This document shows, one piece after another, positions 11,000 through 57,094 of a stretch of 64,000 nt of DNA (the stretch's first letter is position 1; each line of letters opens with the position of its first letter). The translations under genes were made by a program, and so were the position numbers. Source of the DNA: a virus; UHGV virus genome UHGV-0279745; one strand, written 5' to 3'. Under the pieces are notes generated by a model that did no database searches, was not told the DNA's origin, and saw nothing but the letters and a program-made list of their open reading frames with translations.

Positions 11000-11035
11000 G
11001 GGGAACTTCGGTTCCCCTTTCTTTTTTGTTTTTAC
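11000..11035 (+). terminator. rho-independent terminator
   Basis: GGGGAAC-ttcg-GTTCCCC followed by a T-run. Confidence 0.75.
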
Positions 11036-11081: not shown

Positions 11082-12080
11082 ATGGCTTTTATGAAGATTA
11101 TAAAACATACCGCCACGGATTTAACAGTAGGTCGGTTAGCACGTAGAGATATTCGCAACCCTCAACTTCAGGCATGTTTATCGGGCCCTAACGGTGCTGT
11201 GATTCGTGAGGCGTTGTGCAATAGTGAACTGAATACGTTCTCTTTACAAAAAGGAAAAACAATCCAAGGGTTTATCATCACAAAACACATTTACGGCGAC
11301 CCAACGTTACACTGCTTGTATATGCATGAAATTGTACCGGGTTGTTTGAACAAACTGAACCTGCTACTGGTACTCGACTATACCGGTTTTACGTATCTTA
11401 ATCGAATCGCCAGTGGTGTAGAAGAAATCGCTGAGCTTAACGACTTAGGATTTAGACACACTCACACTACGTATCGCTTAGGTACACGCTCGTTGTTGGA
11501 TATCGCTCTACCAACAAACGTGAAGAACATCTCCGGCGATTTTTATAAAGAGCTAACCGCTGCACAACGTGAACAGCTTATGTTGCTTTTGGGTACGAGT
11601 GTCGTTGAAAACATCAACGCTGACCCTGTGAGTCGCTCACGTCAAATCATGCCACAAGTCGAAACGTTGGTGGAGTTAGTACGTCATGTCAACCACCACA
11701 CCTACGTTTGGATGGATGGCAATGATATTGTGGGCGCGGTGCAAGTTAAATTGCGTAATCTTAACGAGTGTGAATTAAAAGCCATTGCGGTAAGTGAGAC
11801 ACATCGGGGTCGTGGTATCGGACGGACTTTATTGTATCGTGCTCTACAAATTGCATCGACAACAGCGGCACCATTAGAGATAGGGTGTTTCAATAACAAC
11901 CCTGCATTCAGGCACCTGGCCGTCGAATTATTTAAATTTCGCCCCTACGAATACGAACTTGTTTTAGTGCGTGACGAAAACGTCGTCAGTTGGGAGCGTC
12001 AGAAAAATCATGTCAGATTGGTGTTAGTCGACGAAGCGTCATCGTTACAAGGCGGATATAATGCGGAAACCGATAATTAA
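11082..12080 (+). CDS. hypothetical protein with C-terminal GNAT-like domain
   Basis: C-terminal HRGRGIGRTLLYRALQ resembles GNAT motif A; N-terminal 200 aa unknown. Confidence 0.5.
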   Translation: MAFMKIIKHTATDLTVGRLARRDIRNPQLQACLSGPNGAVIREALCNSELNTFSLQKGKTIQGFIITKHIYGDPTLHCLYMHEIVPGCLNKLNLLLVLDYTGFTYLNRIASGVEEIAELNDLGFRHTHTTYRLGTRSLLDIALPTNVKNISGDFYKELTAAQREQLMLLLGTSVVENINADPVSRSRQIMPQVETLVELVRHVNHHTYVWMDGNDIVGAVQVKLRNLNECELKAIAVSETHRGRGIGRTLLYRALQIASTTAAPLEIGCFNNNPAFRHLAVELFKFRPYEYELVLVRDENVVSWERQKNHVRLVLVDEASSLQGGYNAETDN

Positions 12081-12876
12081 ATGGATGGGTGGGAAAACAC
12101 GCGTTTTGGGTGAATTACAAAAGGTCTTACCTAAACGTACAACCTTTGTAGAACCGTTTGTGGGCGCAGGGTCTGTTTTCCTAAATACGAATTACAGCCG
12201 GTATATTCTATCGGATTCTAACCCCGATTTGATACGCTTACTTTGTGTTGCGCGTGAACAGCCTGAAGAACTGATCGCTGCATCGCAACCGTTGTTCTTA
12301 GACGGTAATACCACTGTAAAGTATATGGAACGTCGTGAACTGTTTAATAGCGGTAAATCGATGTCCGAAGTTGAACGTGCTGCAATGTTTTTATACTTAA
12401 TGCGTCACGGCTATAACGGGATGTGTCGTTATAACAGTAGTGGTGGGTTCAATGTTCCGTTTGGACGTTACCCGAATGGCGTTTATTATCCATTAGAAGA
12501 AATTCGGGATTGGGCTAAACGTTGCGCAGAAGTTGAGTATCTGGAAATTGTTTGTGAAGACTTTCGTTCTGTATTAGCACGGACACCTGAAGATGCCGTG
12601 ATTTATGCTGATCCTCCTTATATTCCGTTATCGGATACCGCGAAACACGCGCAATACCACCGTAAGGAATTCTCACAAACGGATCATCGTGAATTAGCCA
12701 AGTTACTACAGCAGCAGGTGGAACGTGGCAACAGCGTCGTGCTGTCAAATGCAGACACCCTACTCACCCGAGAAATTTATTACGGTTTTGAGTGGCGCAG
12801 TATTGAGGTTGGTCGCTATATGGGTGCGTCTGGTGCCGCTCGGAAAACAGTGACTGAATTACTGGGAGTGCTCTAA
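12061..12876 (+). CDS. dam: DNA adenine methyltransferase (Dam, GATC-type)
   Basis: Near-colinear match to E. coli Dam as recalled: KWMGGK, VEPFVGAGSVFLNT, GYNGMCRYN..GGFNVPFGRY, and catalytic DPPY (ADPPYIPLS). Confidence 0.92.
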   Translation: MRKPIIKWMGGKTRVLGELQKVLPKRTTFVEPFVGAGSVFLNTNYSRYILSDSNPDLIRLLCVAREQPEELIAASQPLFLDGNTTVKYMERRELFNSGKSMSEVERAAMFLYLMRHGYNGMCRYNSSGGFNVPFGRYPNGVYYPLEEIRDWAKRCAEVEYLEIVCEDFRSVLARTPEDAVIYADPPYIPLSDTAKHAQYHRKEFSQTDHRELAKLLQQQVERGNSVVLSNADTLLTREIYYGFEWRSIEVGRYMGASGAARKTVTELLGVL

Positions 12877-13649
12877 TGCGCATAGTGGATATCCACGATT
12901 ATCGTAATGACCATTTAGCAATCGGTGTGGATGGCAAAATGGTTTCGCTAACCCGTGTACGGAAAGGGTTACTGGAAAAGGACGTCATTCGCGAATCTGA
13001 AGATCCGACCTTTATCATTCTTTCGAACACGAATCAGCTGCAAGGAATTTTCTCCGGTCGCACTGACGGTAAGATTTTCTACATGTCAGCAATCGTTGTG
13101 TTTGCGAAGAAGAACATCAATTTCGCACAACTCAAACGGTTGTTAAATGTGGAGGTGTTTGATATAACCTACCCTGCCAACGACCTAAAACGTCGCGATC
13201 AGTTAATGGCGTTTTTGGGTATGCAGCCGACGTCTATCGACTATGAGCTGACGTTTACTGAAAAACCTGAGGTTCGTACCGATTTACCTGATGTCGATGA
13301 TATTGAATCTCTAACGTTAGAAGAAACGTTTACGATTCCTAAGGTGGCTAATGTCAGTTTGGATACGTACTGCCTGGGTTTGTTAGCGATTGGGGCTGCC
13401 GAAGGGCTGTGCTGTCGTAAAGACGGTAAAGTTGAAGGTATCTTAGTCTATTCGAAAATCAACGAAAAGACGTTTGCCACCGAAGGTTTCTTCTATAATG
13501 ACTGTACTTACGGGAATGCACTCTTAACCACATACTGTCGTATTGCGTATTTAAAGGGTGCAGCCGTGCGTCTTACTTTTCCATACTCAGCACCACCGGC
13601 GATGCCTGGTGTTGAAGTAGAAGCTTTAACTGGCCATTTTATCTTTTAA
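12876..13649 (+). CDS. hypothetical protein
   Basis: 257-aa ORF; start overlaps the Dam stop (TAATG). Confidence 0.55.
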   Translation: MRIVDIHDYRNDHLAIGVDGKMVSLTRVRKGLLEKDVIRESEDPTFIILSNTNQLQGIFSGRTDGKIFYMSAIVVFAKKNINFAQLKRLLNVEVFDITYPANDLKRRDQLMAFLGMQPTSIDYELTFTEKPEVRTDLPDVDDIESLTLEETFTIPKVANVSLDTYCLGLLAIGAAEGLCCRKDGKVEGILVYSKINEKTFATEGFFYNDCTYGNALLTTYCRIAYLKGAAVRLTFPYSAPPAMPGVEVEALTGHFIF

Positions 13650-14435: not shown

Positions 14436-14474
14436 CCCCTCTCTCCGTTTGGAGGGAGGGAGTATTTATTTTTA
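14436..14474 (+). terminator. rho-independent terminator
   Basis: CCCCTCTCTCC-gttt-GGAGGGAGGG followed by a T-run; near-duplicate of the terminator at 15501. Confidence 0.7.
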
Positions 14475-15500: not shown

Positions 15501-15540
15501 CCCTCTCTCCGTTAGGAGAGAGGGTACTTTTATTTTTCTT
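15501..15540 (+). terminator. rho-independent terminator
   Basis: CCCTCTCTCC-gtta-GGAGAGAGGG followed by a T-run. Confidence 0.75.
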
Positions 15541-20783: not shown

Positions 20784-23700
20784 ATGGCTAAAGCGGTAAA
20801 GAAAATTCGTTTACACGATTTACGTCCATACACCGGGGATATCGGTGAAGGCGTTTTACTTTTTTCGAAAGACGAAAGGGATTATCAGTTACCTGTCCGC
20901 GAGATTGTTGCGGATATTGACACCGTCAGAAACGCGGTTGCTGACGCACAAACGGCGGCGGCCAAATCGCAACAGTCTGCAACAGAAGCCACACAAGCAA
21001 AAGACTTAGCAGAAACAGCGAAGCAACAAACTGACACGTTAGCTTCCACAGTTAGCGAGCAAGCGGGAACCGTTGCCACTAAAACTGCCGAGGTTAGCAA
21101 AAAACACGCTGAAGTTTTAGCCGCGAAAACTGCCGTAGATACTGTATTACAGTCGGTAAATGAGAAAGCTCAAGCTGTCGCTACAAGCGAACAATCGGTG
21201 ACGGCTGCAGCGGCTGACGTAACTAAGAAAGCAGAAACGGTTACGCAACAGGCCGGACAAGTCCAACAGACGGCTACCGGTGTCGAGAATACTGCGGCTT
21301 CAGTTGAGGCCAGTAAGGGCGCAGTGGAGAAGATTGCTGCACAGGTCGCGAAAGATAAAGAAAGTTCAGAAGGCGCAGCAACACGTTCGGAGTCAGCTGC
21401 CTTACGTGCGGAGAAAATCGCTGCGCAGGGCTTAATCGACGCTAGTACAACCGGTAAAGGTATCGTTAAACTTAACGATACACTGACTAGCGAATCCGTG
21501 ACTGAGGCCGCCACACCGTCCACGGTTAAACAGCTGAATGACGAATTACAGTTAAAAGCCAATAAACATTCGCCGAATTTTACGGGTAAACCGTCATCCC
21601 CAACACCCCCGAAAGATTCAAACGACACGAGTATTTCCACAACGGCCTGGGTGCGTGACGCGATTGCGGAACTGGTTGGTTCTTCACCCGAGACGTTAAA
21701 TACCTTAGCGGAATTAGCTGAGGCGTTAGGTAATGACCCTAACTTCGCAACAACGATTACTGGGGAACTTGCGCAGAAACAACCTCTCAGTCCGTTGCTC
21801 ACCGCCATTGCCGCAGTCACCACAGCGGCAAATAAACTCATGTATTTCACTGGCAGTAATAAAGTCGGATTAACGGATTTTACAGAAACTGCCAGATCCT
21901 TGTTAGCGAAAGGGTCAACTGCGGATATCATCAATTTCTTGGGATTAAAGGCTACTGTAGATAAAGCGAATGGCGCGTTACAGAAAAACTCTAACGGCGC
22001 TGATATCCCAGATAAAGAAACGTTTGCTCGCAATATCGGTCTGTCTCCTGACACCTATCTGCGTTTCCGTGGCGAAATGCCAGTAGATGCTGATATTAAC
22101 ACATTTGCTCCAGATGCCAATTACACAGGAACGTGGGCTAAGTCGACGTCAACCAATGCGTCGATGGCAAAACATTTCCCAGAAGACGGTGCAGTCGGTT
22201 ATCTGGAAGTGTATAAAGCCGGTAATTACAGTGGCGCACAGCGTTTTACCTGCCGTAATGGTAACGTGTACAACCGTATGCTGAGTGGCGCGTGGAATGG
22301 TGCCAATGGACCCTGGTCACCGTGGAGAATGGTAACTACTGGTGTACGTCCATTATCTACCTCTATAGACTTGAACAGTTTGGGTGGCGCTGAGCATATG
22401 GGTAACTGGCGAAACTCAAGCAGTTCGCTGGCTGTTTTTAGCAGACATTACCCTGAAGAAGGTGGCGGTGCGCAAGGCGTACTAGAAGTAATGGAAGGTG
22501 GTCTTTTCGGACGGTTGCAGCGATACACCACACGTCGTGGTACGATGTATGTTCGTGGTTTGACCGCAACGTGGGATTCATCAAACCCGCAATGGGAAGA
22601 TTGGATTCAGGTTGGTTATCAGACTGACGGTGCTTTCTTTAAAGCCAATTTTAACGATCTCGTTAAACCGGGACGTTTCAGTGTCACTGGTGAAGCAACT
22701 AACGGTCCACTTACCGGTTCTTCTGGTGAAACCATATTAGGCGTTTGTGAAGTTACCTTACGCTTAGACGGTACAGGGGTCGAACAGAATTATACTACAT
22801 ACGGTACGGGTACAGAAACTAAAGGTCGTAAATTCCAACGTATCCGTACGGGTAACGCTTGGAGTGACTGGCGTGAGGTTTTCACATCGTATTCGCTTCC
22901 GTTGGTATTAGGTATCGGCGGTGAACGTGCGAATGTTGATCCTTTAGACTGGCAAACCTATGACTTTAAACCAGGTGAGTTAATCTGTACGCCGCTTAAC
23001 ACCATGAAAAATATTCCTACGGGAATGGATTGGGGTGTTATTGACGGTAACTTAGTTAGCATTCTGGTTGGTCCATCAGATGGCGCTACATCAGGCCGGA
23101 GTATGTTGGTTTGGCGTAGTACGGTGTCTACTGCCAACTATCGATTCTTTGCAGTACGTATCGCTGGTGATAAAGGTAGTCGTACGATTACACCACGCCA
23201 GATGCCTGTATTGAATGCAGCACACACCTGGGCAGAAAAACAGACCTTTGCAAAAGGGTTAGCAGGTGAGTTAACAGGCAATGCTTCAACCGCAACGAAA
23301 TTAAAGACCGCACGTAGAATTGGTGGGGTCGCCTTCGACGGTAGTGGTGATATTAACCTCCCAGGTGTTAACCAACAGGGTAATCAAAACACCACGGGTA
23401 ATGCCGGGACAGCCACTAAACTTCAAACTGCCAGAAATATTAACGGTGTGAGATTCGATGGTTCTGCTGACATCAATATCAACACCCTGGTAGGTCGTGG
23501 TCGGGTTACTGCACTAACCGGTTCAAACAAAGGTACGCCTGGTATTCAGATGTACGAAGTTTACAATAACGGTTATCCGACCGCTTATGGTAACTTACTG
23601 CATTTGGGTGGTTCTGCCGCATTAGGTGAAGGTGAACTGTTAATCGGTTGGTCGGGCACGAGTGGTGCGCACGCGCCCGTTTATATTCGTAGTCGACGTG

Positions 23701-25385
23701 ATACAGCGGATGCGCCGTGGTCAGATTGGGCACAAGTTTATACTGCCCGTGATAGTATTCCTGGTGTAAATACCACAGGTAATCAAGATACTACTGGTAA
23801 CGCTGCTACCGCGACGAAACTGAAAACTGCTCGCAGAATCGGGGGCGTTACCTTTGACGGTACTGGGGATATCAATTTACCGGGGGTTAACCAGCAAGGT
23901 AACCAGAATACGACAGGTAATGCAGCAACCGCTACTAAGTTACAAACAGCACGTAAGATCGGCGGTGTTAACTTTGACGGTTCGCAAGACATTAGTCTGC
24001 CCGGTGTGAACCAAACCGGTAACCAATCGACTACGGGGAATGCTGCGACAGCGACTAAGCTCCAGACTGCGCGAAATATAGGTGGCGTAGCTTTTGATGG
24101 TACTAAAGACATCAACTTACCTGGCGTAAACCAAACGGGCAATCAGTCGACCACCGGAAACGCGGCCACTGCAACAAAATTGCAGACAGCGCGTACCATT
24201 AACGGTATCGCATTTGACGGCACCAAAAACATCGAAATAACGGCTGAAAGTTTAAATCTTGGCCAAACTGTAGAATTGGCCGGTGGGTCATTGCAGAAGA
24301 AACAGAATGGTGCCGATATTCCAGATAAGAGAAAATTCTTACGAAATGTTGGTGCCGCGAACACAACAACTGTGTCTTTTAATGGTGGTGCCGGATGGTT
24401 CAAACTGGCAACTGTAACGATGCCGCAAGCCAGTTCCGTGGTTTACATAAGCCTGATTGGTGGTGCAGGGTTTAACGTTGGTTCCCCACATCAAGCAGGT
24501 ATCTCTGAGCTGGTTCTGCGCGCAGGAAATGGGAATCCAAAAGGTATTACTGGTGCGTTATGGCGACTGACCTCAGTCGGCTTCACTAATTTTGCATGGG
24601 TGAATACATCTGGTGACACTTACGATATTTATGTTGAAATAGGTAATTACGCCACCGGTGTTAATATTCAGTGGGATTACACTAGTAATGCCAACGTAAC
24701 GATTCATACATCGCCAAGTTATACGGCTAATAAACCCGCAGGACTAACAGACGGTACCGTCTATCTGATTTACAGCACACACAACAAGCCTAACGCTGGT
24801 GACATCGGTGCGTTACCGTCAGGGGGCGGTACTATAGGTGGCGATTTAACCGTTAACGGTAAATTGGTCACTAAGTACCCTGATTTTCGAATCGCTTACG
24901 GCAACTACGGCTTTATGTTACGTAACGATGGTGCCAATACCTATTTCTTAGTAACCGACGCCGGTCAAGCTGCAACGGGTTCCTGGAACGGTCTACGTCC
25001 GTTGTATTTTAATAATGCTAACGGTCAAGTAACCTTTGGTCATAACGTTACTGGCAGCGGTAACGGTTCGTTTAACGACGTACAGATTCGTTCTGACCGT
25101 CGTAACAAACGTAATCTGGTGAAACTAGATAAAGCTTTGGATCGGTTAGAGTTACTAACCGGTTATTTGTACGAAATTCAGCATCCTGACGACGGCTGGC
25201 AGACCTCTGTAGGTCTAATTGCTCAAGACGCATTAGAAGCGTTACCTGAACTTGTGTCTGAGGATGATGATGTCATTTCAGGCGAAAAACGTTTACGTCT
25301 AAACTACAATGGTGTTATTGCGCTGTTAGTAGAGGGTATGAAAGCGTTGCGTCAAGAGATTAACGAAATCAAAGGGAGATCCTAG
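20784..25385 (+). CDS. long tail fibre protein with C-terminal intramolecular chaperone (S74-like) domain
   Basis: 1533 aa: Ala/Thr/Gln-rich N-terminal region, six 40-aa repeats (GNQxTTGNAATATKLQTAR..GV.FDG..DINLPGVNQ), and C-terminal SDRRNKRN...GLIAQDALEALPELV resembling the autoproteolytic chaperone domain of endosialidase-type fibres. Confidence 0.88.
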   Translation: MAKAVKKIRLHDLRPYTGDIGEGVLLFSKDERDYQLPVREIVADIDTVRNAVADAQTAAAKSQQSATEATQAKDLAETAKQQTDTLASTVSEQAGTVATKTAEVSKKHAEVLAAKTAVDTVLQSVNEKAQAVATSEQSVTAAAADVTKKAETVTQQAGQVQQTATGVENTAASVEASKGAVEKIAAQVAKDKESSEGAATRSESAALRAEKIAAQGLIDASTTGKGIVKLNDTLTSESVTEAATPSTVKQLNDELQLKANKHSPNFTGKPSSPTPPKDSNDTSISTTAWVRDAIAELVGSSPETLNTLAELAEALGNDPNFATTITGELAQKQPLSPLLTAIAAVTTAANKLMYFTGSNKVGLTDFTETARSLLAKGSTADIINFLGLKATVDKANGALQKNSNGADIPDKETFARNIGLSPDTYLRFRGEMPVDADINTFAPDANYTGTWAKSTSTNASMAKHFPEDGAVGYLEVYKAGNYSGAQRFTCRNGNVYNRMLSGAWNGANGPWSPWRMVTTGVRPLSTSIDLNSLGGAEHMGNWRNSSSSLAVFSRHYPEEGGGAQGVLEVMEGGLFGRLQRYTTRRGTMYVRGLTATWDSSNPQWEDWIQVGYQTDGAFFKANFNDLVKPGRFSVTGEATNGPLTGSSGETILGVCEVTLRLDGTGVEQNYTTYGTGTETKGRKFQRIRTGNAWSDWREVFTSYSLPLVLGIGGERANVDPLDWQTYDFKPGELICTPLNTMKNIPTGMDWGVIDGNLVSILVGPSDGATSGRSMLVWRSTVSTANYRFFAVRIAGDKGSRTITPRQMPVLNAAHTWAEKQTFAKGLAGELTGNASTATKLKTARRIGGVAFDGSGDINLPGVNQQGNQNTTGNAGTATKLQTARNINGVRFDGSADININTLVGRGRVTALTGSNKGTPGIQMYEVYNNGYPTAYGNLLHLGGSAALGEGELLIGWSGTSGAHAPVYIRSRRDTADAPWSDWAQVYTARDSIPGVNTTGNQDTTGNAATATKLKTARRIGGVTFDGTGDINLPGVNQQGNQNTTGNAATATKLQTARKIGGVNFDGSQDISLPGVNQTGNQSTTGNAATATKLQTARNIGGVAFDGTKDINLPGVNQTGNQSTTGNAATATKLQTARTINGIAFDGTKNIEITAESLNLGQTVELAGGSLQKKQNGADIPDKRKFLRNVGAANTTTVSFNGGAGWFKLATVTMPQASSVVYISLIGGAGFNVGSPHQAGISELVLRAGNGNPKGITGALWRLTSVGFTNFAWVNTSGDTYDIYVEIGNYATGVNIQWDYTSNANVTIHTSPSYTANKPAGLTDGTVYLIYSTHNKPNAGDIGALPSGGGTIGGDLTVNGKLVTKYPDFRIAYGNYGFMLRNDGANTYFLVTDAGQAATGSWNGLRPLYFNNANGQVTFGHNVTGSGNGSFNDVQIRSDRRNKRNLVKLDKALDRLELLTGYLYEIQHPDDGWQTSVGLIAQDALEALPELVSEDDDVISGEKRLRLNYNGVIALLVEGMKALRQEINEIKGRS
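23265..23483 (+). repeat. tandem 120-bp (40-aa) repeat block 1 within the tail fibre gene
   Basis: Two units encoding G(E/N).(T/N)TGNA.TATKL.TAR.I.GV.FDGS.DIN.... Confidence 0.8.
23778..24240 (+). repeat. tandem 120-bp (40-aa) repeat block 2 within the tail fibre gene
   Basis: About four consecutive units GNQ(D/N/S)TTGNAATATKLQTAR.IGGV.FDG..DI.LPGVNQ. with high DNA-level identity. Confidence 0.85.
25091..25382 (+). other. C-terminal intramolecular chaperone / autoproteolysis domain of the tail fibre
   Basis: SDRRNKRN...LTGYLYEI...GLIAQDALEALPELV matches the conserved pattern of endosialidase-type C-terminal chaperone domains as recalled. Confidence 0.7.
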
Positions 25386-26167
25386 TGGCAGTTGTCGGCG
25401 TAGGTGGTTGGATTGGTTCTTCAGCAAAAGCTGAAACTGGTAACGATTGGATGTCTGGCGCGATGCGCACACTTGGTGTGCCGGTTCCAGGCTGGATGTC
25501 GCAATTGGCGGGAAAATCAAAAGAGGTCCATTATTCTATTGGTGCTAACCATAGCTATAATAAGGATACTCTTATTAACTATTTACGTTCTTTAGGCTCT
25601 ACTGCTGTCGTTGTGACTATTACGGGGGATTTAGTGTCTTATAGTAGCGGAGTTCCTTGTTTAGAGTTCCCTGGCGACCTACCGAACTCCTCCATTACAC
25701 TCGTTATCAATCCTGGGGTTACAGTATACGGCAGAGGAGGCAACGGTGGTTCTAACTCGCCAGGCGGTGCAGGTGGAACCGCAGTACAGAACGGAATAGG
25801 AAACAGGTTACGTATAACTAACCGTGGCGCTATTGCCGGAGGCGGTGGCGGCGGTGGCGGCGGTAACAGGGGTAGACTAATATTTGGTGGTGGCGGTGGT
25901 CGCCCATTCGGTGCTGGTGGGTCTTCCTCTCATATGAGTTCCGGTGCAACTGCTGGTACTATTTCCGCTCCTGGTAAAGGATCTGTTGGTGAGGGGTCTC
26001 TTAGTGCATATACAGGCGGTTCGGGTGGTAATGTCGGTGCTGCTGGAGGAAGATGTAATACTCAAGGTAACGGTACAGAATATAACGGCGGAGCAGCTGG
26101 TAAAGCTGTTACTGGTAATGCGCCAAGATGGGACGCAGTAGGTGCAATATACGGTTCACGTGTTTAA
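25385..26167 (+). CDS. glycine-rich protein (poly-Gly tract), fibre-associated
   Basis: GTG start overlaps the fibre stop by 1 nt (TAGTG); contains GGGGGGGGGN and many GG/GGS tracts. Confidence 0.6.
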   Translation: MAVVGVGGWIGSSAKAETGNDWMSGAMRTLGVPVPGWMSQLAGKSKEVHYSIGANHSYNKDTLINYLRSLGSTAVVVTITGDLVSYSSGVPCLEFPGDLPNSSITLVINPGVTVYGRGGNGGSNSPGGAGGTAVQNGIGNRLRITNRGAIAGGGGGGGGGNRGRLIFGGGGGRPFGAGGSSSHMSSGATAGTISAPGKGSVGEGSLSAYTGGSGGNVGAAGGRCNTQGNGTEYNGGAAGKAVTGNAPRWDAVGAIYGSRV

Positions 26168-26242
26168 TTAAAAAGGAGGGTAGATGGGGTAGCGTCAGGA
26201 TGGGTCGGATCTTCAGCTAGGAATGAAACGGGCGAACAATGG

Positions 26243-26686
26243 ATGAGCGCTGCTGGTAGTAAATTAGGATTGGGTAGACCTTTTATGATGAGTCAAATGG
26301 TGGGAAGATCTATGGGCTGTAAAATTGCAACTGCTGCATATAGCGATTCTTTAGGTAAGAAATGGGGCGCGGTAGGGCCAAGCTGGCCGTTAAACCAGAA
26401 AAATCAGGGAACCATTCAAAACGCGGGTAACTGCGGGGTGGGAACTTTAGTAGGTATCGAGTTACAGTTAACGACGATAGTTGCTAACGCAAAACCCACT
26501 TTAGCGGTTTACTTACAAGGTGGGAGAGCCTCTAACATTACCGTAAATTTAGGTGGCAACACTTGTACGCTGACCTATCAGCAGGTTATTAACGGACAGC
26601 ATTATTACTGGACTAATAACATCAGCGCTGCGTTCCAAAACGTAATGAAATCAACAGGCGCGCTACGTGATTTGCGAATTAGTTAA
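26243..26686 (+). CDS. paralog of the glycine-rich protein N-terminus (5' end uncertain)
   Basis: Homology to the N-terminus of the 25385 ORF (GW[IV]GSSA+xETGxxWMS[AG]A) begins in frame upstream of ATG 26243, directly after the TAA of the preceding gene. Confidence 0.5.
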   Translation: MSAAGSKLGLGRPFMMSQMVGRSMGCKIATAAYSDSLGKKWGAVGPSWPLNQKNQGTIQNAGNCGVGTLVGIELQLTTIVANAKPTLAVYLQGGRASNITVNLGGNTCTLTYQQVINGQHYYWTNNISAAFQNVMKSTGALRDLRIS

Positions 26687-26773: not shown

Positions 26774-27289
26774 ATGGGACAATTCGTGCCGGATTTGTCA
26801 CTGACCTCACCTAACATGGTTATTTCGTTGATCAATCACGACCTTCAGCTTGATCTGCAAGAAACCGATGTTGAGTTTAGCGAACTAAAATCTAGCGACG
26901 CGATGGATCGTGATACCACTGCTGTTGTAAAGATCAAACGTCCGGGCAGCAGAACGTTACAGATCTATTACAATCGTTTAACCGCAGAGCGGTGGTTAAA
27001 CCAGCAACCTATTCTGGTAAAGGTCACCGGTAATGGCTTTACTACGCACGATCTGATCGACGGAATTAATGCGGTCTGTGGTAGTAATTTACAAGCCGAC
27101 GATCTTACCGACGAATCATTTACCGTAGGGAGGGACGCTGTAACATTACAAGTTTCACCCAACTCGCTAGGTTATAAAGGCCAATTCTCCGTTCTGGTTT
27201 TCGGTAACGATGAAGAAGCCGCAGTAACAAAAGACAACGATTTGATCGTTACTGCAGATAATCGTGTCTTAACATTCGGAGGTCACTAA
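26774..27289 (+). CDS. family-X paralog (fibre-associated hypothetical protein)
   Basis: MGQFVPDLSLTSPNMVISLINHD and ...LQIYYNRL are paralogous to 20021-20581; precedes the second fibre-like gene. Confidence 0.55.
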   Translation: MGQFVPDLSLTSPNMVISLINHDLQLDLQETDVEFSELKSSDAMDRDTTAVVKIKRPGSRTLQIYYNRLTAERWLNQQPILVKVTGNGFTTHDLIDGINAVCGSNLQADDLTDESFTVGRDAVTLQVSPNSLGYKGQFSVLVFGNDEEAAVTKDNDLIVTADNRVLTFGGH

Positions 27290-41481: not shown

Positions 41482-42029
41482 TCATCGTCTCCTTTAATCA
41501 ACCCTAATTCGATTAACAGTTCAAAATCGATATGACGGAATCTTGTGTCGAAGTCCGATTCCCAATCGATACGGATACCCTGGCATTCTTCTGGCGTTAG
41601 CTCAGGAAAAATCACGCTATTAAATTTCTCCCGCTCATCGTAAAACCCATCAATCGGTGAGTTCGGGTTACGTGTTGCGAAGATAGTAATGCCGGGGAAG
41701 GACAATGCCAACACAGTGATAGATTCTGCGCTGGGTTCGCTTAAAGAGCGGCGTAGAAACGCAATTTTGTGACGTGGGAAATCCAATACCCGTTCTTCAA
41801 ACCCTGGGTTACGTTTTTCAATTTCCGCGACCGACAGGTCAGTAAGTTCGGTGCAGTACATTGGGATGATTACAGTCACACCGTGACGAATCAGCAAGCG
41901 TTTTACGTCATCGGTGAAATCTTCACCGTTAATCACCACATAACAACCAAATAGCTTACTGTTTTCCAGAAACTTATCCAGAAGTCGAATTCTACGCTTC
42001 GTAATATTGTTGATCAGAATTGGTTTCAT
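41457..42029 (-). CDS. hypothetical protein (rSAM-operon accessory)
   Basis: 190-aa ORF; start overlaps the 3' end of the radical SAM gene. Confidence 0.5.
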   Translation of the reverse strand: MKPILINNITKRRIRLLDKFLENSKLFGCYVVINGEDFTDDVKRLLIRHGVTVIIPMYCTELTDLSVAEIEKRNPGFEERVLDFPRHKIAFLRRSLSEPSAESITVLALSFPGITIFATRNPNSPIDGFYDEREKFNSVIFPELTPEECQGIRIDWESDFDTRFRHIDFELLIELGLIKGDDECLLLVKA

Positions 42030-43314
42030 CTTTGGCTTCTCTTAATAATTTTTCCTTTTGGGCACGTTCACGAACACAGCGTGGGCAATAACACATGCTC
42101 GTGTCGTGGAACGCTTTTGCTGACGTCGTACCCATCTTCTGTTTCCAGTATTCCGCCACCATCAGTTTCGCTGTCGTCCAGCCACACTGACGTCGTTCAG
42201 CGTGATACGCTTTACGGTCTTCTAACGTTCCTTCCCCGTTCTCGTAAGAAGCCGCCGCGCAGCTACCACAAGCGTGTTTCATCGGACAACCTAAACAGGT
42301 CTCTGGGTAGTTGGTATATTGCGTTTGAATCTCTTCTAACAATTTACCGTTGTCCAGACTGACGAATTCCCGACCTACCAACTCAAACACCGCAGAACGC
42401 GACGTTACCGTTGACATAAAGCGGTTACAGCCAAAGATCTTACGGTCAAATCCTAAGCACGTCATGTGCGTTAACGTCCCACAGAACGGACGTAAGCGTT
42501 CTGGGTTCAGCCGTACGGTGTCATTATACAGTAACTGGTCACGCCAGTTCGGTTCCCAAATCGTATCGAAATCCAACCCTTCTGGAATGATGTGCGATAA
42601 GATATTACGTGGGTTGGTGTGTAATCCTTTCTCAACCCAGTAATCTATCACATCCATCATCTGTAAAGCGATTGACGTCGCCATGCTACGTGGCATAACG
42701 TCTTCGAAAGTTACGTTTCCAGAAATTGTCCCACCGCCAGTAATGTCAATTAATGACTTCATCCCCGCAGCATAGAACGGCAGCGTTTCTAACGTAAAGG
42801 TTGCTTTTACGCCGAGCTCTGCAATGCCAACCTCTTTTAAGTAGTTATAGCCACGTACTGCGGCTTCGTAAGAACCCTGGCGTGTTGTTGTGAATATACG
42901 ATAACGGTCATGGGATTCAGGTAAGCCGTCAATCGAAACCCCAACCGAAAGTTTGTCTTTCCAACGTTCTACAATCTCACGGTTCAACGGACGATCTAAC
43001 AGCGTTCCGTTCGTGGAGATACTAAACATAAACGGTCGGTTGTGTTCTTTACACAACTGCTCAGCGGTTTCAAACGCAGCCAGCAGCAGTTTAGGTTGCA
43101 TGAACGGTTCACCACCGATAATGTCAATAATAACTTCAACATTCGGTTCGTTTTTATCACGTTCAAAACAGGCGTGTAAGAAATCAACAATATCTGCCGC
43201 TTTGTTGTTACGCGGGTACTTACGTTCGTAACAATACTCGCAGTCCAGGTTACACGAAAGGTTGGTTACGATCTGATACGTTAACTGCTTAGGGAATTCA
43301 TTTACTTGACTCAT
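41992..43314 (-). CDS. radical SAM enzyme with C-terminal SPASM-like Cys cluster
   Basis: CNLDCEYC (CxxxCxxC) near the N-terminus, GGEPFM glycine-rich SAM motif, and C-terminal clusters CGTLTHMTC...C and CLGCPMKHACGSC; GAGGGG SD before ATG. Confidence 0.85.
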   Translation of the reverse strand: MSQVNEFPKQLTYQIVTNLSCNLDCEYCYERKYPRNNKAADIVDFLHACFERDKNEPNVEVIIDIIGGEPFMQPKLLLAAFETAEQLCKEHNRPFMFSISTNGTLLDRPLNREIVERWKDKLSVGVSIDGLPESHDRYRIFTTTRQGSYEAAVRGYNYLKEVGIAELGVKATFTLETLPFYAAGMKSLIDITGGGTISGNVTFEDVMPRSMATSIALQMMDVIDYWVEKGLHTNPRNILSHIIPEGLDFDTIWEPNWRDQLLYNDTVRLNPERLRPFCGTLTHMTCLGFDRKIFGCNRFMSTVTSRSAVFELVGREFVSLDNGKLLEEIQTQYTNYPETCLGCPMKHACGSCAAASYENGEGTLEDRKAYHAERRQCGWTTAKLMVAEYWKQKMGTTSAKAFHDTSMCYCPRCVRERAQKEKLLREAKDETNSDQQYYEA

Positions 43315-46360: not shown

Positions 46361-47560
46361 TTATTTCGTACCCGCTTCTGCCTGAACGTCATCACGGGAC
46401 GTCAAGTTAGCGTTAACGTGTACTGAAGCCTGAACCACACCACCGTATTTCTTGTGGAGATAGCCTGTGTGTGGGTTATCTGCCGCAATATGGTTTTGCA
46501 GGTTCTGATTCGCCTGACTGATCGCGTTCGTGTTATTCGCGACCTGTTGTTTAAGCGCATCCAAGTTTTGTTGCAGATTATCAATTTTCTGATCGGACTC
46601 ATTACCCCGCTGTTCTAACGCAGCAATGCGCTGAATCGCTTGATTGAGTTTGGTGCTCAGATCGTTGATATTTTTCTGTAACTGTAACACTAGCGAATTT
46701 AGGTTCGCCAATGCCAATGCCATTTTCTGGTAGTTTTGTGCAACGATGTTAAGTTGGTCGTTCCACGCTTCCAAAGATTTGACAACAGCATCAATACGTT
46801 TTCCTAACGCTTCATCCGCTTTCTTCAACGCATTAATATCAGTAATGGTTGCATCGATGGCAGACTGTACGTCACGGATAAGTGCACGGATCTCCGTTTC
46901 TGTTAACCCGTTAACCTGGTGAATATCCAGATGGTGGACGTTACCCGTGGCGTTAATGTGCGCGTTCAGCGCGTCCAGGAAATCGTTTTTCAGGCTTTCG
47001 AGAATCGCTTTGATGTTCTCAAGCTGTACAGCATCGCCCGCCGTTATCGCATCTTTAATGCCAGCGAGCACTGTAATGATATATTCGAAGCCGTAAATAT
47101 CGCCGACGTCTTTATACGTCGGTGCCGACGGAAATGTATCAGGAACATTTCGCAAGTCTTTAAAGCCAACAGTTCGATTATCGAGATTCAACTCAGCAAT
47201 CGCCTGTTCTATCGCAGTCACGTTTGCCGACTGCGGACCCCCGACTACTTGCGCCGATACCGTGATATCGGTCGGAATCGCGGTGTTCGTTACAACAACC
47301 GCCATTACCACTTCCCGGTTCTTCGTCAATTTCTCGTAAGCCGGGTGTGCAAAAATCAACTCATAGTCCGTTCCGCGCTCATACGTCGCATCGGGGCGGT
47401 TAGCAACCCGCAAGCGGAACGTATCAGCATAAAACGGACCGTCAGGAAAAGCAAACGCACGGTTAACTTTACCTGTGCCTAACGTAACCTGACGCTCCAC
47501 GGCGTTAGAGGTTAGGGTTCCCGTTAAATCTAAAGGGTATTGGTATACAATGGAGGCCAT
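46361..47560 (-). CDS. fibritin-like coiled-coil fibre protein
   Basis: N-terminal domain shared with the three giant fibre proteins (PDGPFY...GTDYELIF); long Asn/Gln/Leu/Ala-rich heptad region; start trimmed to ATG 47560 after AAGGAGAG. Confidence 0.7.
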   Translation of the reverse strand: MASIVYQYPLDLTGTLTSNAVERQVTLGTGKVNRAFAFPDGPFYADTFRLRVANRPDATYERGTDYELIFAHPAYEKLTKNREVVMAVVVTNTAIPTDITVSAQVVGGPQSANVTAIEQAIAELNLDNRTVGFKDLRNVPDTFPSAPTYKDVGDIYGFEYIITVLAGIKDAITAGDAVQLENIKAILESLKNDFLDALNAHINATGNVHHLDIHQVNGLTETEIRALIRDVQSAIDATITDINALKKADEALGKRIDAVVKSLEAWNDQLNIVAQNYQKMALALANLNSLVLQLQKNINDLSTKLNQAIQRIAALEQRGNESDQKIDNLQQNLDALKQQVANNTNAISQANQNLQNHIAADNPHTGYLHKKYGGVVQASVHVNANLTSRDDVQAEAGTK

Positions 47561-47600
47561 GGCCACTCTCCTTAATCCGAGACGTCCTTGTCTCGTGGCG

Positions 47601-50600
47601 TTAAGATGTAAACATAAGATTGAACTGGAGCTTATCGATATCGCGGGTTTGTGCTGGGTTAACCGCATCGTACGTGGTTGCCACGTAGACCGTTAATGTC
47701 CCGTCAGCAAACGAAGTTTTCACCGGTGGCGTAGTCCCTGTCTGTCCATCAGTTACAATGACGACAGGTTGAGCCGGGAGTTGATGGAACTGACCCTTAA
47801 CCGCTTTATACACCAAACCAGATTGCGCTGATAACTCCGTGTCGGTATAGACGATAAACGGCGTGTCGATATCTGTCTGTTTAATGACAGTGTTCGTCTC
47901 AACGTCAATCAGCTGAACAGCACCGAACTTCGTACGGTAGCTATCGTATTCATTTTTTGGAATGACAAACGTAGCATGTACACGGACTTCTTCGGCGGGC
48001 TTAAATCCGGCGTGTTCTTTTTCCAGATAGCTGTTAGCAGTTAACGTTACTGTCTGTTCAGTCATCGTACCACCAGACTGGTTTAACCCGTAACGAACTT
48101 GGGTTATACCTGTCGGAGCCGCAAGCCTGATTTTTAGTCTACGGTTAGCGGTGCCGGGATTACCAGGCACTCTAACACGCAGGCTCAAAGCCAGATATGC
48201 ATTCGTACCGGTAGTCGGTTTCGTATACGCACCCAACCACTTCATATTCGCGGTTGCCGCTTGACTGTTCTCAGAAGCAGTAGCCGCTACAACGTTTGCA
48301 GCGACCGCTTTCTGCCAGAACTGGTCAGCGCAGTTCTCATACGCTACTCTACCGATACTTTTATAACCTGCATAGGTTTCCTGTATCGGCAGATTGGGGC
48401 GTGTTGTGATCCCGCTCAACGCATTCCATCTCTGACCATCGACATACCCCGCACCATTGCTCGCGGATGCCGTGGGGGCTTTCAGCGGTTGGTTAACCAA
48501 GGTTTGGAGTGGACCCGTTTTTCGATCGTACGCCGCTGCAACGTCGTGCTGATCTCTAACAGCAGCGTGTTCTTCTAATTCACGAACCCTGCCTAACCGT
48601 TTCACTTTATCGATGTTAATAGCAACTATGCGCTTTTTATCGGTTGTAACTGTACCAACAAATAATCGCGAAGTCGTATCCGGCAGCTTTTCCAGCCCGA
48701 TCCGATATTGAGCTTTCGAACCTACAAGAGCAGCATGAACATAGAACGTCTGGTTAGCATGGTTTTCTGGGAATTCGTTGCTTAAATCCACCGACCACGT
48801 CGGTAATGTATAGCTATTACTACCGAAATCTAACCTGACCTCTTCCGTCAAGTATAGAATCCAACCTTCCGCAGTCTCCACGCCTGCAATAATAACCGCC
48901 TGCCCCGCTGTTGAGAATGTGGTATCATTAACGAACTCTTCGACTGTATATGCGTTACCTGAACAGAAAACGCGGTCAGCTTTAGAGAAAATTCGTGCCA
49001 TCTTGTCCCAATTACCCGCACCCATGTAACAACCAGATTCTGGGTTGTGGGCAGGAGCCATCTGACGCAACTGTGACTTACCGGGAACGCGAGTCCAACC
49101 CGACCCAGGGTTAAAGGTATACTTCGCAGCGTAACCCAAAGCATTTAGGTCCCCGATATTCCGTATTGTCAGCGTATAAGGCAACCATAGACCGAAGTTT
49201 ACACCGTCGGCAGAAGCAAAAATTGGCTGGCCTACACGTCGCGTTTTATTGCCCGCTTCTTCCCTCAGAGACTGATAACTTAAGCCGTAATCAAGGTCTA
49301 AGAACCAATCAACGAGTTTGAAAGTAGCCGAGTTAAAACGTAGATAACCGTTTTCTTTGGTCGGACTTACCATGAAGTAATAGATGTCGAGAACTCGACG
49401 TCCGTTACTCAGGGTTTTCATACATGAGACTTGTAATAAGTCGAACTCACAAACAGTGTTAATGCCTAGCAACCAGAGCGCAAACAACGCGTTGCCGCTT
49501 TGGTGTGCTGCACTGATGCGTTCGTTCGCGTAACCGTTTGCTTGACCAGATGGTGCACCGTCGACAATCATCCTAATCATCTTCTGGCGATCCGCTTCCT
49601 CTAACGTCAGCCGTTCTGATGACAGGGCAAAGTTACCGTAGATGTTTCGATATGGGAAGGTTTCCGCTTTCGTCAAATACCAACCGTTTAATTGCCCGTG
49701 ACGCTCCTCAGGAGTCATGCAAGCAGCCATACAGCTTAACTGTTCGTAAAGGGTTGCATCAACTTCTCGACGGTTGTTGTTCGGACCATAACCACTATAT
49801 CCGGGAACGTCATAAGGTTTACTTGGGTCAACTTCTACTTCGATCGTATAGCGGTTGCGCGGATTGGATAGCCAAACCTTATTCGAACCACCAATACCGA
49901 CAGGATGAGAAAGACCGATTGTATAGATAGAACCGCGACCTTTATCCCATGTAAATGTTGCTTCGCCTGAGGTATTGTTTGGGTTATCATAACGCAGATA
50001 ATCAAAAAACTCTTTGCCTTGCGTACTTTTAATAGTAACGTTCGGCATCTGGTCCGCATCGTTAATCTGCCAGCAGGAAAGCATCATTCCCGAGACATTA
50101 GGTTTAGCATACGTCGCAAAACAACGATTGTTTGCTTGGCCGCCACCCCACTTACGACTGGTTTCTACAGTTGAGCCATCCGCGAACGTCAGTGTGGTAG
50201 TATCAACCTTAATGGGGAAACGTTCGGCACCCTCTAACGTAACTCTGCCCGTTAACGTATCGATTGTGAAACTTGTTGACCATTGACGGAAATTAATCGT
50301 CGAACCGTCGGCAGCCGCAAACCACACGGTGGGTACATGGTTCACACGAATCACGCTGTCGCGCACCGCACAAGCATGGCTACATTCTGGACCGTGAACA
50401 AAACTGTGACCGATTGTCCATTTAGCCCGTGCCTCTGGCGGGTAATACGTAAAGAACTGACCAGTCTGCGACTCTTCGGTCTTCTGACCAATTCGTAAAC
50501 AGAGGTTATCTCCGAATTGCCCCATTTCTCCGGTTAGGGTTACACGTTCAAATTCTAACTCAGTATTGTTAGTCAAATCGGCTTTACGTAAACGCCATGC

Positions 50601-52784: not shown

Positions 52785-52878
52785 CGTAAAGACTCCTACT
52801 TTTAAATAAAATGGATACCCCTCCCCGTTACAGGGAGGGGTTACCTACGGACACACAACTGCCCGCAGGCAGCCTGTC

Positions 52879-57081: not shown

Positions 57082-57094
57082 CAAAAAATTCTCC

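Follow-up and report, generated by a model that had tools for sequence, protein, structure and literature searches.

What kind of methyltransferase is encoded by the open reading frame (ORF) at 12061–12876 of this viral DNA, where did the phage obtain it, and what would such an enzyme do in a phage whose DNA may be hidden from host proteins? In the initial annotation, made from the sequence alone, the product was described as a Dam methyltransferase nearly colinear with that of Escherichia coli (EcoDam), which suggested acquisition from, or close co-evolution with, an enterobacterial host. Here, the enzyme, its gene neighbourhood, the phage lineage and the distribution of GATC sites were analysed across the whole 64-kb stretch (the window) and in related phage genomes. 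Coordinates of the features are collected in Table 1.

Table 1. Features at and around the dam gene (positions of the window)
Feature	Position	Strand	Basis and remarks
Terminator-like hairpin with T-run, putative 5′ boundary of the GNAT–dam unit	11000–11017	+	Consensus scan, sequence; predicted function
Upstream 332-aa ORF, N-terminal region with no function assigned and C-terminal GNAT acetyltransferase domain	11082–12080	+	PF00583; phrog_8663
Shine-Dalgarno-like element AAGGCGGA	12049–12056	+	Read from sequence, 8 nt 5′ of the dam ATG, within the end of the upstream gene; predicted function
dam, 271-aa orphan Dam-family (alpha-group, D12-class) N6-adenine DNA methyltransferase, predicted GATC specificity	12061–12876	+	ORF, profiles, structure
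FxGxG SAM-binding motif codons (F33-V-G-A-G37 = EcoDam F35–G39)	12157–12171	+	EcoDam alignment
DNA-recognition beta-hairpin codons	12412–12471	+	Residue mapping onto EcoDam; roles from PMC4417163
Catalytic DPPY codons (D184–Y187 = EcoDam D181–Y184)	12610–12621	+	Alignment, sequence
Downstream 257-aa ORF (ORF257), fast-evolving family	12876–13649	+	phrog_9941 only; start overlaps dam stop
Strong terminator-like hairpin (10 bp, 7 GC) with T-run, putative 3′ unit boundary	14437–14460	+	Consensus scan

Identity and predicted specificity of the enzyme

The protein was matched end to end by Pfam PF02086 (D12-class N6-adenine methyltransferase; E=2.7e-57, 194.8 bits against a cut-off of 22, residues 8–249 on profile positions 1–248 of 253), passed the TIGR00571 'dam' subfamily model (254.5 bits, cut-off 114.85), and aligned colinearly with the sequences of E. 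coli Dam crystal structures (E=4.3e-65, query residues 3–269 against Dam 5–266), with 42.6% identity across 265 aligned residues and three short indels. The agreement is far beyond chance, and it is confirmed that 12061–12876 encodes a full-length Dam-family N6-adenine DNA methyltransferase, the enzyme family of E. coli Dam. As such the finding is ordinary, and the gene is already annotated: an identical protein is deposited in NCBI as "DNA adenine methylase", and Seoulvirus orthologues annotated DNA adenine methylase were noted in PMC6614189.

An AF2 model of the protein (pLDDT 89.6, pTM 0.89) was compared with the PDB using Foldseek, and the top matches were all EcoDam (E about 3e-29, TM 0.83–0.93, rmsd 2.1 Å), followed by DpnM (E=2.5e-21) and then T4 Dam (TM about 0.72). 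The comparison with enterobacterial and T-even Dam that the initial annotation had proposed gave the same ranking, with EcoDam at E=4e-65 and 43% identity, and T4 Dam far weaker at E=1.4e-10, with about 25% identity over 68% of the length (T4-like phages). The phage Dam is of the EcoDam type, not the T-even type.

Motifs stand in the alpha-group order, FxGxG (F33–G37) being followed by the hairpin (residues 118–137) and the C-terminal DPPY (D184–Y187); FxGxG is invariant or near-invariant among 27 jumbo-phage homologues, and the DPPY is the sole [DNS]PP[YFWH] motif across all ORFs of 80 aa or more in the window. EcoDam residues K9, W10, F35, G37, D54, Y119, N120, R124, N126, N132, P134, R137, Y138, DPPY and R249 are all kept, and the hairpin residues Y118, N119, M121, R123, N125, N131, P133, R136 and Y137 correspond to EcoDam Y119, N120, L122, R124, N126, N132, P134, R137 and Y138. 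Among the GATC-reading residues tested (K9, Y119, N120, L122, R124, P134 and Y138 in EcoDam numbering; roles in GATC recognition from PMC4417163), the sole change is L122 to M, and the equivalents of R124, N120 and P134 are invariant in the 27 homologues. The near-colinearity with E. coli Dam noted initially extends over the full length of the alignment and, with that one substitution, over the SAM-binding, catalytic and GATC-contact residues.

Methionine also occupies the L122-equivalent position in T4 Dam, which is GATC-specific. A specificity other than GATC, or a catalytically dead protein that merely binds DNA, is nonetheless conceivable from this substitution, from a hairpin that is one residue longer (PNGV in place of KKP), and from the binding of EcoDam itself to non-GATC sites (PMC4417163). 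Set against these points are the retention of catalytic, SAM-binding and base-contact residues, their conservation across the clade, and the superposition of the model on EcoDam at about 2 Å, and either departure is judged very improbable. In fold, motif order and contact residues the enzyme resembles EcoDam (PDB 2G1P, 4RTJ; NF008152), and base flipping with Y119-type intercalation and an R124-type guanine contact is most likely its mode of action too; it differs in being only ~43% identical, in lacking the 10-residue C-terminal tail of EcoDam, and in its branch of the tree.

Gene structure, neighbours and orphan status

The dam ORF is intact, with an ATG start and 271 codons, and its start at 12061 is backed by homology from residue 3 on, including the N-terminal loop with EcoDam K9/W10, as well as by an AAGG(CGGA) Shine-Dalgarno-like element 8 nt upstream. 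The 20-nt overlap with the GNAT-domain gene that had been reported is exact (upstream TAA at 12078–12080). It is not conserved, being 8 nt in a relative of 82% identity and absent from Salmonella phage SPFM3, and the GNAT gene itself is missing in Erwinia phage Asesino. A second overlap, absent from the initial annotation, joins the dam stop to the ATG of the next ORF (TAATG, 12874–12878).

In sequence arrangement, dam comes second in a closely packed putative five-gene unit, GNAT332-Dam-ORF257-ORF75-ORF168. The first gene of this putative operon carries the GNAT domain at residues 198–280 (PF00583, E=1.7e-12) and has syntenic counterparts in SPFM3 and the 82% relative. The hairpin proposed as the 3′ boundary has a near-identical copy at 15501–15524. 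Scanning of the window for sigma-70 promoters gave fewer matches than expected from shuffled sequence, as expected since the phage has its own RNA polymerases, and no Rfam families or tRNAs were found in the 64 kb.

ORF257 had no Pfam, NCBIfam, PADLOC or PDB match, even by profile, and no nuclease signature; a word-indexed homologue search returned only relatives at 91% identity or more, and an AF2 model built from a shallow alignment was unusable (pLDDT 32.6). Its family is 14–25% identical between genera, keeps its position beside dam in relatives, and is present in one copy in the window phage and duplicated in SPFM3 and Asesino. A reading of ORF257 as a degenerate GNAT paralogue was dropped (hhalign against the upstream GNAT family, probability 0.13).

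The overlap of stop and start codons on both flanks of dam, together with the conserved presence of a neighbour of unassigned function, would fit the modification half of a phage restriction-modification or toxin-like module, with ORF257 or the GNAT protein as its partner. Yet searches of Pfam, NCBIfam, PADLOC and PDB sequences matched no neighbour of dam to a nuclease, even profile searches gave ORF257 and the GNAT protein no nuclease or defence match, and the five neighbouring ORFs scanned hit no PADLOC defence or nuclease model. Moreover, the divergence and duplication of the ORF257 family are unlike those of a specificity-matched restriction endonuclease, the GNAT gene is dispensed with in Asesino, and the best PADLOC model for Dam is that of an orphan methyltransferase (PDLC03729, 287.6 bits). 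Such a module is judged highly unlikely, although ORF257, which has no assignable fold, might still act as a functional partner; Dam looks like an orphan enzyme with no recognisable nuclease partner.

Phage lineage

Megablast of 6 kb around dam against 50,697 phage records returned two short patches only, at about 80% identity; the phage was therefore taken to have no close cultured relative, and searches were carried out at the protein level. The gene for chimallin (ChmA) lies outside the window and was found on related IMG/VR contigs. Two of these, 3300029126_000001 and 3300045988_113438 (225,000 and 220,786 bp), each encode both a Dam of 99% identity (L009, L010) and a full-length ChmA homologue (L023, L022), and the window DNA around dam is 93–96% identical to contigs of this kind. 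This linkage of chimallin and Dam on the same contigs came from a search with a 10-sequence alignment; a search with the single Asesino protein retrieved Asesino-like contigs only, and in an exact look-up of the chimallin cluster representative P0127 no Dam-bearing record matched.

Assemblies of Shigella, Salmonella and E. coli contain contigs of ~225 kb that encode the identical Dam protein, in keeping with the proposed genus 'Bapsvirus' as described in PMC12768965. By these sequence relationships, the window phage matches that genus, as a ~225-kb nucleus-forming jumbo phage of the Chimalliviridae, and its likely hosts are Enterobacteriaceae. Phage nuclei are made by its relatives Asesino and SPN3US (PMC13282480, PMC11724907).

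The Dams of Seoulvirus and Erskinevirus (Salmonella phage SPFM3, SPFM3_00226; Erwinia phage Asesino, gp121) are orthologues of 271–272 aa with 67–72% identity; they share its syntenic block (Tmk-HTH-...-Dam-hypothetical) and belong to chimalliviruses that form a nucleus and lack PhuZ. The phage differs from them as a separate ~225-kb Bapsvirus-like lineage with no DNA similarity at the megablast level, and shares the 332-aa GNAT gene with Seoulvirus.

Origin of the phage Dam

The proposed enterobacterial origin stood in part. The enzyme is indeed of the EcoDam type, and the likely hosts are indeed Enterobacteriaceae, both of which would be compatible with capture of a chromosomal dam gene; recent acquisition from the host did not stand. 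The protein failed the housekeeping equivalog NF008152 / PRK10904 (257.8 bits, cut-off 441), and its identity to EcoDam (about 43%) is below that of the non-enterobacterial housekeeping Dams of Rheinheimera and Alkalimonas (57–62%). In a neighbour-joining (NJ) tree, it fell within a jumbo-phage clade (bootstrap 99% for the core, 80% for the whole clade), and the jumbo-phage and P2-like prophage Dams were split from those of EcoDam, Rheinheimera and Alkalimonas with 100% bootstrap. Pairwise identities of Dam and chimallin correlate over nine phage genomes (Mantel r=0.85, p=2e-4); Dam divergence thus tracks chimallin divergence, which indicates vertical inheritance within the phage lineage. Recent capture of the host chromosomal dam, which this co-divergence also contradicts, is effectively refuted.

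Synteny of the block Tmk-HTH-hyp-(GNAT)-Dam-hyp extends to Seoulvirus, Erskinevirus and metagenomic relatives, and on tree and synteny dam is judged an old resident of Bapsvirus-like phages, Erskinevirus and Seoulvirus, as well as of Erwinia jumbo phages at a greater distance. Outside jumbo phages, the nearest relatives by identity and tree position are accessory Dams of P2-like prophages in Enterobacterales (45–51% identity; Pectobacterium atrosepticum 'phage DNA adenine methylase' P0028 and Salmonella P0041), not the host housekeeping Dam. These are likewise phage-borne orphans and group with the jumbo clade (100% bootstrap); they differ in belonging to temperate ~35-kb phages, in being longer in many cases (up to 321 aa), and in adjoining the replication protein GPA and sometimes a second methyltransferase.

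GATC sites

GATC occurs 154 times in the window (about one site per 416 bp), once within the DPPY codons of dam itself. GATC is significantly depleted in the window phage and even more so in Dam-encoding relatives, with observed/expected ratios (O/E) of 0.30–0.58 in Dam-encoding relatives against 0.69 in the Dam-less Goslar (n=4 genomes, three partly sampled). This depletion counts against a simple account in which methylation makes GATC harmless.

T4 Dam (PDB 1YFJ/1Q0S) and P1 Dam (Dmt) are, like the present enzyme, phage-encoded orphan GATC adenine methyltransferases; GATC methylation is required for cleavage at P1 pac, and the role of T4 Dam in vivo remains unclear (PMC12707154). No GATC-rich pac-like element linked to dam was found in the 64-kb window, and GATC is not enriched in its non-coding DNA, where 5 of the 154 sites lie outside called genes in 6.7% of the sequence, a count that says nothing either way about targets in the host. 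The only GATC cluster, at 26830–27244 and weakly significant, was considered as a Dam-dependent pac- or ori-like element; with nine sites against 4.2 predicted from the amino-acid sequence (z=2.9 among 79 genes), and lying wholly inside a 171-aa ORF, it was judged insufficient.

Proposed role

Taken together, the protein is probably an active orphan Dam of the EcoDam/DpnM branch that methylates 5′-GATC-3′, is vertically inherited, and marks phage DNA. The hosts are taken to be Dam+. Restriction evasion, together with possible interference with host mismatch repair or replication timing, had been offered as the function of the gene; these are generic possibilities, and the combination of a nucleus-forming phage with Dam+ hosts alters the context of the restriction-evasion argument. 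The most likely role would be GATC methylation of phage DNA, perhaps because the phage nucleus keeps host Dam away from it.

Dam would be made during infection and would methylate replicating phage DNA at GATC, such that packaged genomes would bear the same m6A mark as DNA of the Dam+ host. Replication of phage DNA within a chimallin shell that excludes many host proteins, and/or at a pace that host Dam cannot match, would plausibly make a copy in the phage necessary. The benefit may be protection from nucleases acting on unmethylated or hemimethylated GATC (MboI/DpnII-type enzymes, MutH) or, alternatively, correct Dam-dependent handling of phage DNA. Reviews hold that the nucleus makes DNA modification less necessary in this phage family (PMC7824862, PMC13282480), and a literature search on what Dam does in chimalliviruses, where it localises and whether virion DNA is methylated gave nothing specific.

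The main target might instead be the host, if overproduction of Dam during infection or in a carrier-like state hypermethylated the host chromosome to the advantage of the phage, disturbing MutH-directed mismatch repair, SeqA/oriC sequestration and Dam-regulated genes. Asesino leaves host DNA undegraded (PMC11724907), and persistence in growing hosts, in a carrier-like state, has been proposed for Bapsvirus- and Seoulvirus-like phages (PMC12768965), so that host DNA would stay available as a substrate; in addition, a protein made in the cytoplasm has access to host DNA by default, whereas entry to the phage nucleus requires selective import (PMC12908238). Since the hosts would already be Dam+ with most GATC sites presumably fully methylated, any extra effect would be limited to a shorter hemimethylated period, and host DNA is an unlikely main target.

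For methylation of phage DNA, a more specific but tentative possibility, which we consider rather doubtful, is that in PhuZ-less chimalliviruses (Bapsvirus-like, Seoulvirus, Erskinevirus) the nucleus bars host Dam, and phage Dam is imported to supply a host-like GATC mark. Unmethylated GATC would then be a non-self signal in Dam+ Enterobacterales, which would explain the carriage of Dam together with strong purging of GATC.

Significance

As found, dam matters little, being a textbook orphan Dam whose identical protein is already annotated. What is gained is a correction, in that 'host-like' denotes the same enzyme family and not recent capture of a host gene, and the assignment of the window to a chimallivirus lineage that is uncultivated and was described recently. 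If nuclear exclusion of host Dam and import of the phage enzyme were true, a conserved DNA-modifying enzyme in a family presumed to rely on physical shielding would mean that shielding is insufficient, and the DpnI/MboI sensitivity of phage DNA would be a simple read-out of which host and phage proteins reach nuclear DNA. In that case Dam would serve as a defined cargo of selective nuclear import that is easy to assay, and as a counter-defence on top of the nucleus.

Enzyme identity and specificity

The dam product was matched end to end by PF02086 (D12-class N6-adenine methyltransferase, Pfam, E = 2.7e-57), and passed the NCBIfam model TIGR00571 'dam' (254.5 bits, cut-off 114.85). The top matches among PDB sequences were E. 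coli Dam (EcoDam) entries (2G1P, 4RTJ and others, E ~4e-65, query residues 3–269 on EcoDam 5–266), followed by DpnM (6e-40), with T4 Dam found only at 1e-10, placing EcoDam far nearer than T4 Dam. Of 265 aligned residues, 42.6% were identical in EcoDam, and gaps were limited to three short indels. The alignment kept the SAM-motif residues F35, G37, G39 and D54, the catalytic DPPY (EcoDam 181–184) and R249, the GATC readers/intercalators K9, Y119, N120, R124, P134 and Y138, and the phosphate contacts R95, N126, N132 and R137, and the sole substitution among the EcoDam functional residues checked was L122 to Met (roles of K9, Y119, N120, L122, R124, P134, Y138 and R249 from PMC4417163). An AlphaFold2 model produced from 45 homologues was confident (pLDDT 89.6), and its best PDB matches were all EcoDam (TM 0.83/0.92, rmsd about 2 Å), then DpnM, then T4 Dam (TM about 0.72). 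The initial annotation was therefore correct in calling the protein colinear with EcoDam in all motifs, and from these residues and the model GATC specificity can reasonably be inferred; an altered specificity is an unlikely alternative. Dam is thus predicted to work like EcoDam and shares its family (TIGR00571/PF02086), but belongs neither to the housekeeping Dam equivalog nor to the T-even Dam group. Some MAG-derived NCBI records of identical or near-identical copies (DAG37541.1, DAY66627.1) are named 'Cytosine specific methyltransferase', which is a mis-annotation.

Gene context

The coordinates, strand and length first assigned to dam were reproduced, as was its 20-nt overlap with GNAT332, the 5' neighbour; the dam stop also shares bases with the ATG of ORF257, the 3' neighbour (TAATG), which the earlier description lacked. 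The start is well supported, since EcoDam homology runs from residue 3, covering the K9/W10 loop, and a AAGGCGGA element lies 8 nt 5' of the ATG.

Features of the dam region and of the virion-protein genes
Feature	Coordinates	Strand	Remarks
dam	ATG 12061 to TAA 12874–12876	+	ORF call, 271 aa
GNAT332	11082–12080	+	332 aa; GNAT domain PF00583 at the C terminus (E = 1.7e-12, residues 198–280); phrog_8663
ORF257	12876–13649	+	257 aa; phrog_9941
Terminator-like hairpin	11000–11017	+	Consensus scan; 5' of five-gene set
Terminator-like hairpin	14437–14460	+	Consensus scan; 3' of five-gene set
Four tandem paralogous giant virion-protein genes, with a radical-SAM gene nearby	46361–61417 and 41992–43314	-	434, 1726, 1400 and 1439 aa; phrog_2163/7449/8078/7557; radical-SAM gene, phrog_1802

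Five tightly packed same-strand genes (GNAT332, Dam, ORF257, ORF75, ORF168) lie between the first two hairpins, and the consensus scan suggests that they form a single transcription unit. The hairpin 3' of this set is GC-rich and almost identical to one at 15501–15524 on the same strand (CCCTCTCTCCGTTWGGAGRGAGGG), and behind each come a T-run and the next gene's strong AGGAG ribosome-binding site. The window holds no third copy, and the pair probably represents terminator or regulatory cassettes that have been reused.

Among PADLOC models, 'orphan methyltransferase' fitted Dam best (287.6 bits; the top type II methyltransferase model reached 265.5), the five neighbouring ORFs that were scanned matched no PADLOC defence model, and no other (D/N/S)PP(Y/F/W/H) motif was present in any other ORF of at least 80 aa in the 64-kb window. 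Less probably, Dam could work with an unrecognised partner gene. ORF257 gave no domain match in Pfam, NCBIfam or PDB sequences, profile included, and its AF2 model had no usable fold (pLDDT 32.6); because of these results and the lack of defence hits among the neighbours, a nuclease partner of Dam is graded as undetected at the sequence level. The uncharacterised phage family of ORF257 is diverging rapidly (14–25% identity to the homologues in Erwinia phage Asesino and Salmonella phage SPFM3), with two tandem, mutually divergent copies in Asesino and SPFM3 (L001:6830–8463; L002:6823–8448) and one in the window, always 3' of dam.

GNAT332 carries about 190 uncharacterised N-terminal residues ahead of its acetyltransferase domain. 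Seoulvirus has it beside dam (SPFM3_00225, 30% identity, no overlap in SPFM3), as does a metagenomic relative whose Dam is 82% identical (overlap of 8 nt), and Asesino lacks it. The full-length Asesino dam ORF spans L001:6001–6819 (KX397364.2 98255–99073); the GenBank CDS of gp121 begins at 98342, 87 nt downstream of the homologous start (MIKPILKWMGGK...), so that the deposited protein is without the conserved N-terminal 29 residues, the K9/W10-equivalent loop among them.

Phage lineage and origin of dam

No close cultured phage was found by megablast. The nearest Dams by protein were those of Asesino (71.8%) and the Seoulvirus SPFM3 (66.8%), and the block thymidylate kinase, HTH protein, hypothetical, GNAT332, Dam, hypothetical was syntenic with SPFM3 and, save for GNAT332, with Asesino. 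Among the window's products are an internal head protein and giant virion-protein paralogues of the phiKZ/SPN3US type; these paralogues and a radical-SAM gene, also present, are typical SPN3US-like features. In public assemblies, 58 blocks contained the exact Dam protein, their contigs being 224–226 kb long, and NCBI lists it (as 'DNA adenine methylase') from isolates filed as Shigella flexneri, Salmonella enterica and E. coli. IMG/VR contigs of 225,000 and 220,786 bp each carried a 99%-identical Dam and a full-length chimallin homologue, and contigs of this kind showed 93–96% DNA identity to the window around dam. The phage agrees with what is published on the proposed genus 'Bapsvirus' (Chimalliviridae, ~220–226 kb, no PhuZ, Seoulvirus synteny), which was seen in assemblies of Salmonella, E. 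coli and Shigella and may exist in a carrier-like state (PMC12768965).

Homologues were searched over 5.8 billion proteins and ranked by identity, giving the same phage species (99%), the sister lineage (82%), Erskinevirus/Seoulvirus (67–72%), further jumbo Erwinia phages (50–58%) and, last, Enterobacterales proteins (44–49%). The latter were only 42–52% identical to EcoDam, against 57–62% for the housekeeping Dams of Rheinheimera and Alkalimonas, and the two bacterial homologues looked up both lay in P2-like prophages (integrase, Cox, Fil, GPA, portal). Neighbour-joining bootstrap was 99% for the core jumbo-phage Dam clade, 80% for the whole jumbo-like clade, and 100% for the split of jumbo and prophage Dams from EcoDam-type housekeeping Dams, and the NCBI housekeeping-Dam equivalog was missed widely (257.8 bits, cut-off 441). 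Across nine chimallivirus genomes, pairwise Dam and chimallin identities correlated (Pearson/Mantel r = 0.85, permutation p = 2e-4), the window giving 82% and 72%, respectively, with the 82% lineage, 73% and 51% with Asesino-like phages, 67% and 50% with Seoulvirus, and 52% and 44% with Caitlin. Together, the ranking, tree, equivalog miss and co-divergence indicate that Dam has long been inherited vertically within the jumbo-phage lineage. The proposal of a host-like Dam, acquired from or co-evolved with an enterobacterium, thus stands at the level of enzyme family only, and is not supported as a recent acquisition from the host. A 273-aa Dam (P0057, 46% identical) labelled 'MAG: Shewanella sp.' branched off basally in the clade of jumbo-phage Dams, and its 223,477-bp contig may be a further jumbo phage binned as a bacterium.

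GATC content and proposed role

GATC was under-represented in the window (154 observed, 264 expected, O/E 0.58, second-order Markov) and within its 79 ORFs (149 against 206 ± 10.5 by synonymous-codon shuffling, z = -5.5), the palindromes CTAG, AATT and GGCC being likewise depleted. Codon shuffling also showed an excess of ACGT (z = +7.2) and a shortage of AATT (z = -8.1). The same Markov estimator gave GATC O/E of 0.30 for Asesino (45 kb) and 0.38 for SPFM3 (63 kb), both Dam-encoding, and 0.69 for the whole genome of the E. coli chimallivirus Goslar, in which neither a Dam homologue (tblastn) nor a DPPY-type ORF was found. The comparison of these four genomes does show that Dam carriage has not relaxed selection against GATC in these chimalliviruses; a link between carriage and depletion (n = 4) is only a lead. 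Depletion and self-methylation fit as two answers to one pressure, and pressure from methyl-dependent nucleases fits the depletion equally well.

Nine GATC sites clustered in 415 bp (26830–27244; eight in 272 bp), against a window mean of one per 416 bp, wholly within a 171-aa ORF (26774–27289, +) just 3' of the tail-fibre genes (20784–26686). This ORF was the lone outlier among 79 genes (4.2 sites expected by codon shuffling, z = 2.9); either chance or a tail module that was gained horizontally and is not depleted in GATC could explain it.

In this chimallivirus, Dam is an intact enzyme of the EcoDam type that seems to be solitary. It would methylate GATC of phage DNA during replication, for which about 154 sites per 64 kb are available. 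The hosts are taken to be themselves Dam+. Chimalliviruses replicate their DNA within a protein shell that imports selectively (PMC12908238), and phage nuclei are built by Asesino and SPN3US (PMC11724907, PMC13282480); we propose that phage Dam is retained despite Dam+ hosts because host Dam may be unable to reach the shelled DNA. A literature search on chimallivirus Dam found no paper on host Dam access to phage DNA. Alternatively, and less probably, Dam may act on an undegraded host chromosome, and Asesino does not degrade host DNA (PMC11724907).

The gene itself is ordinary: the identical protein is already annotated in NCBI, and an earlier paper pointed to the Seoulvirus orthologues as potential anti-restriction genes (PMC6614189). 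According to reviews, chimalliviruses comparatively seldom carry DNA-modification genes (PMC7824862, PMC13282480). Of modest interest is only that a nucleus-forming phage clade has kept Dam and is at the same time depleted in GATC.
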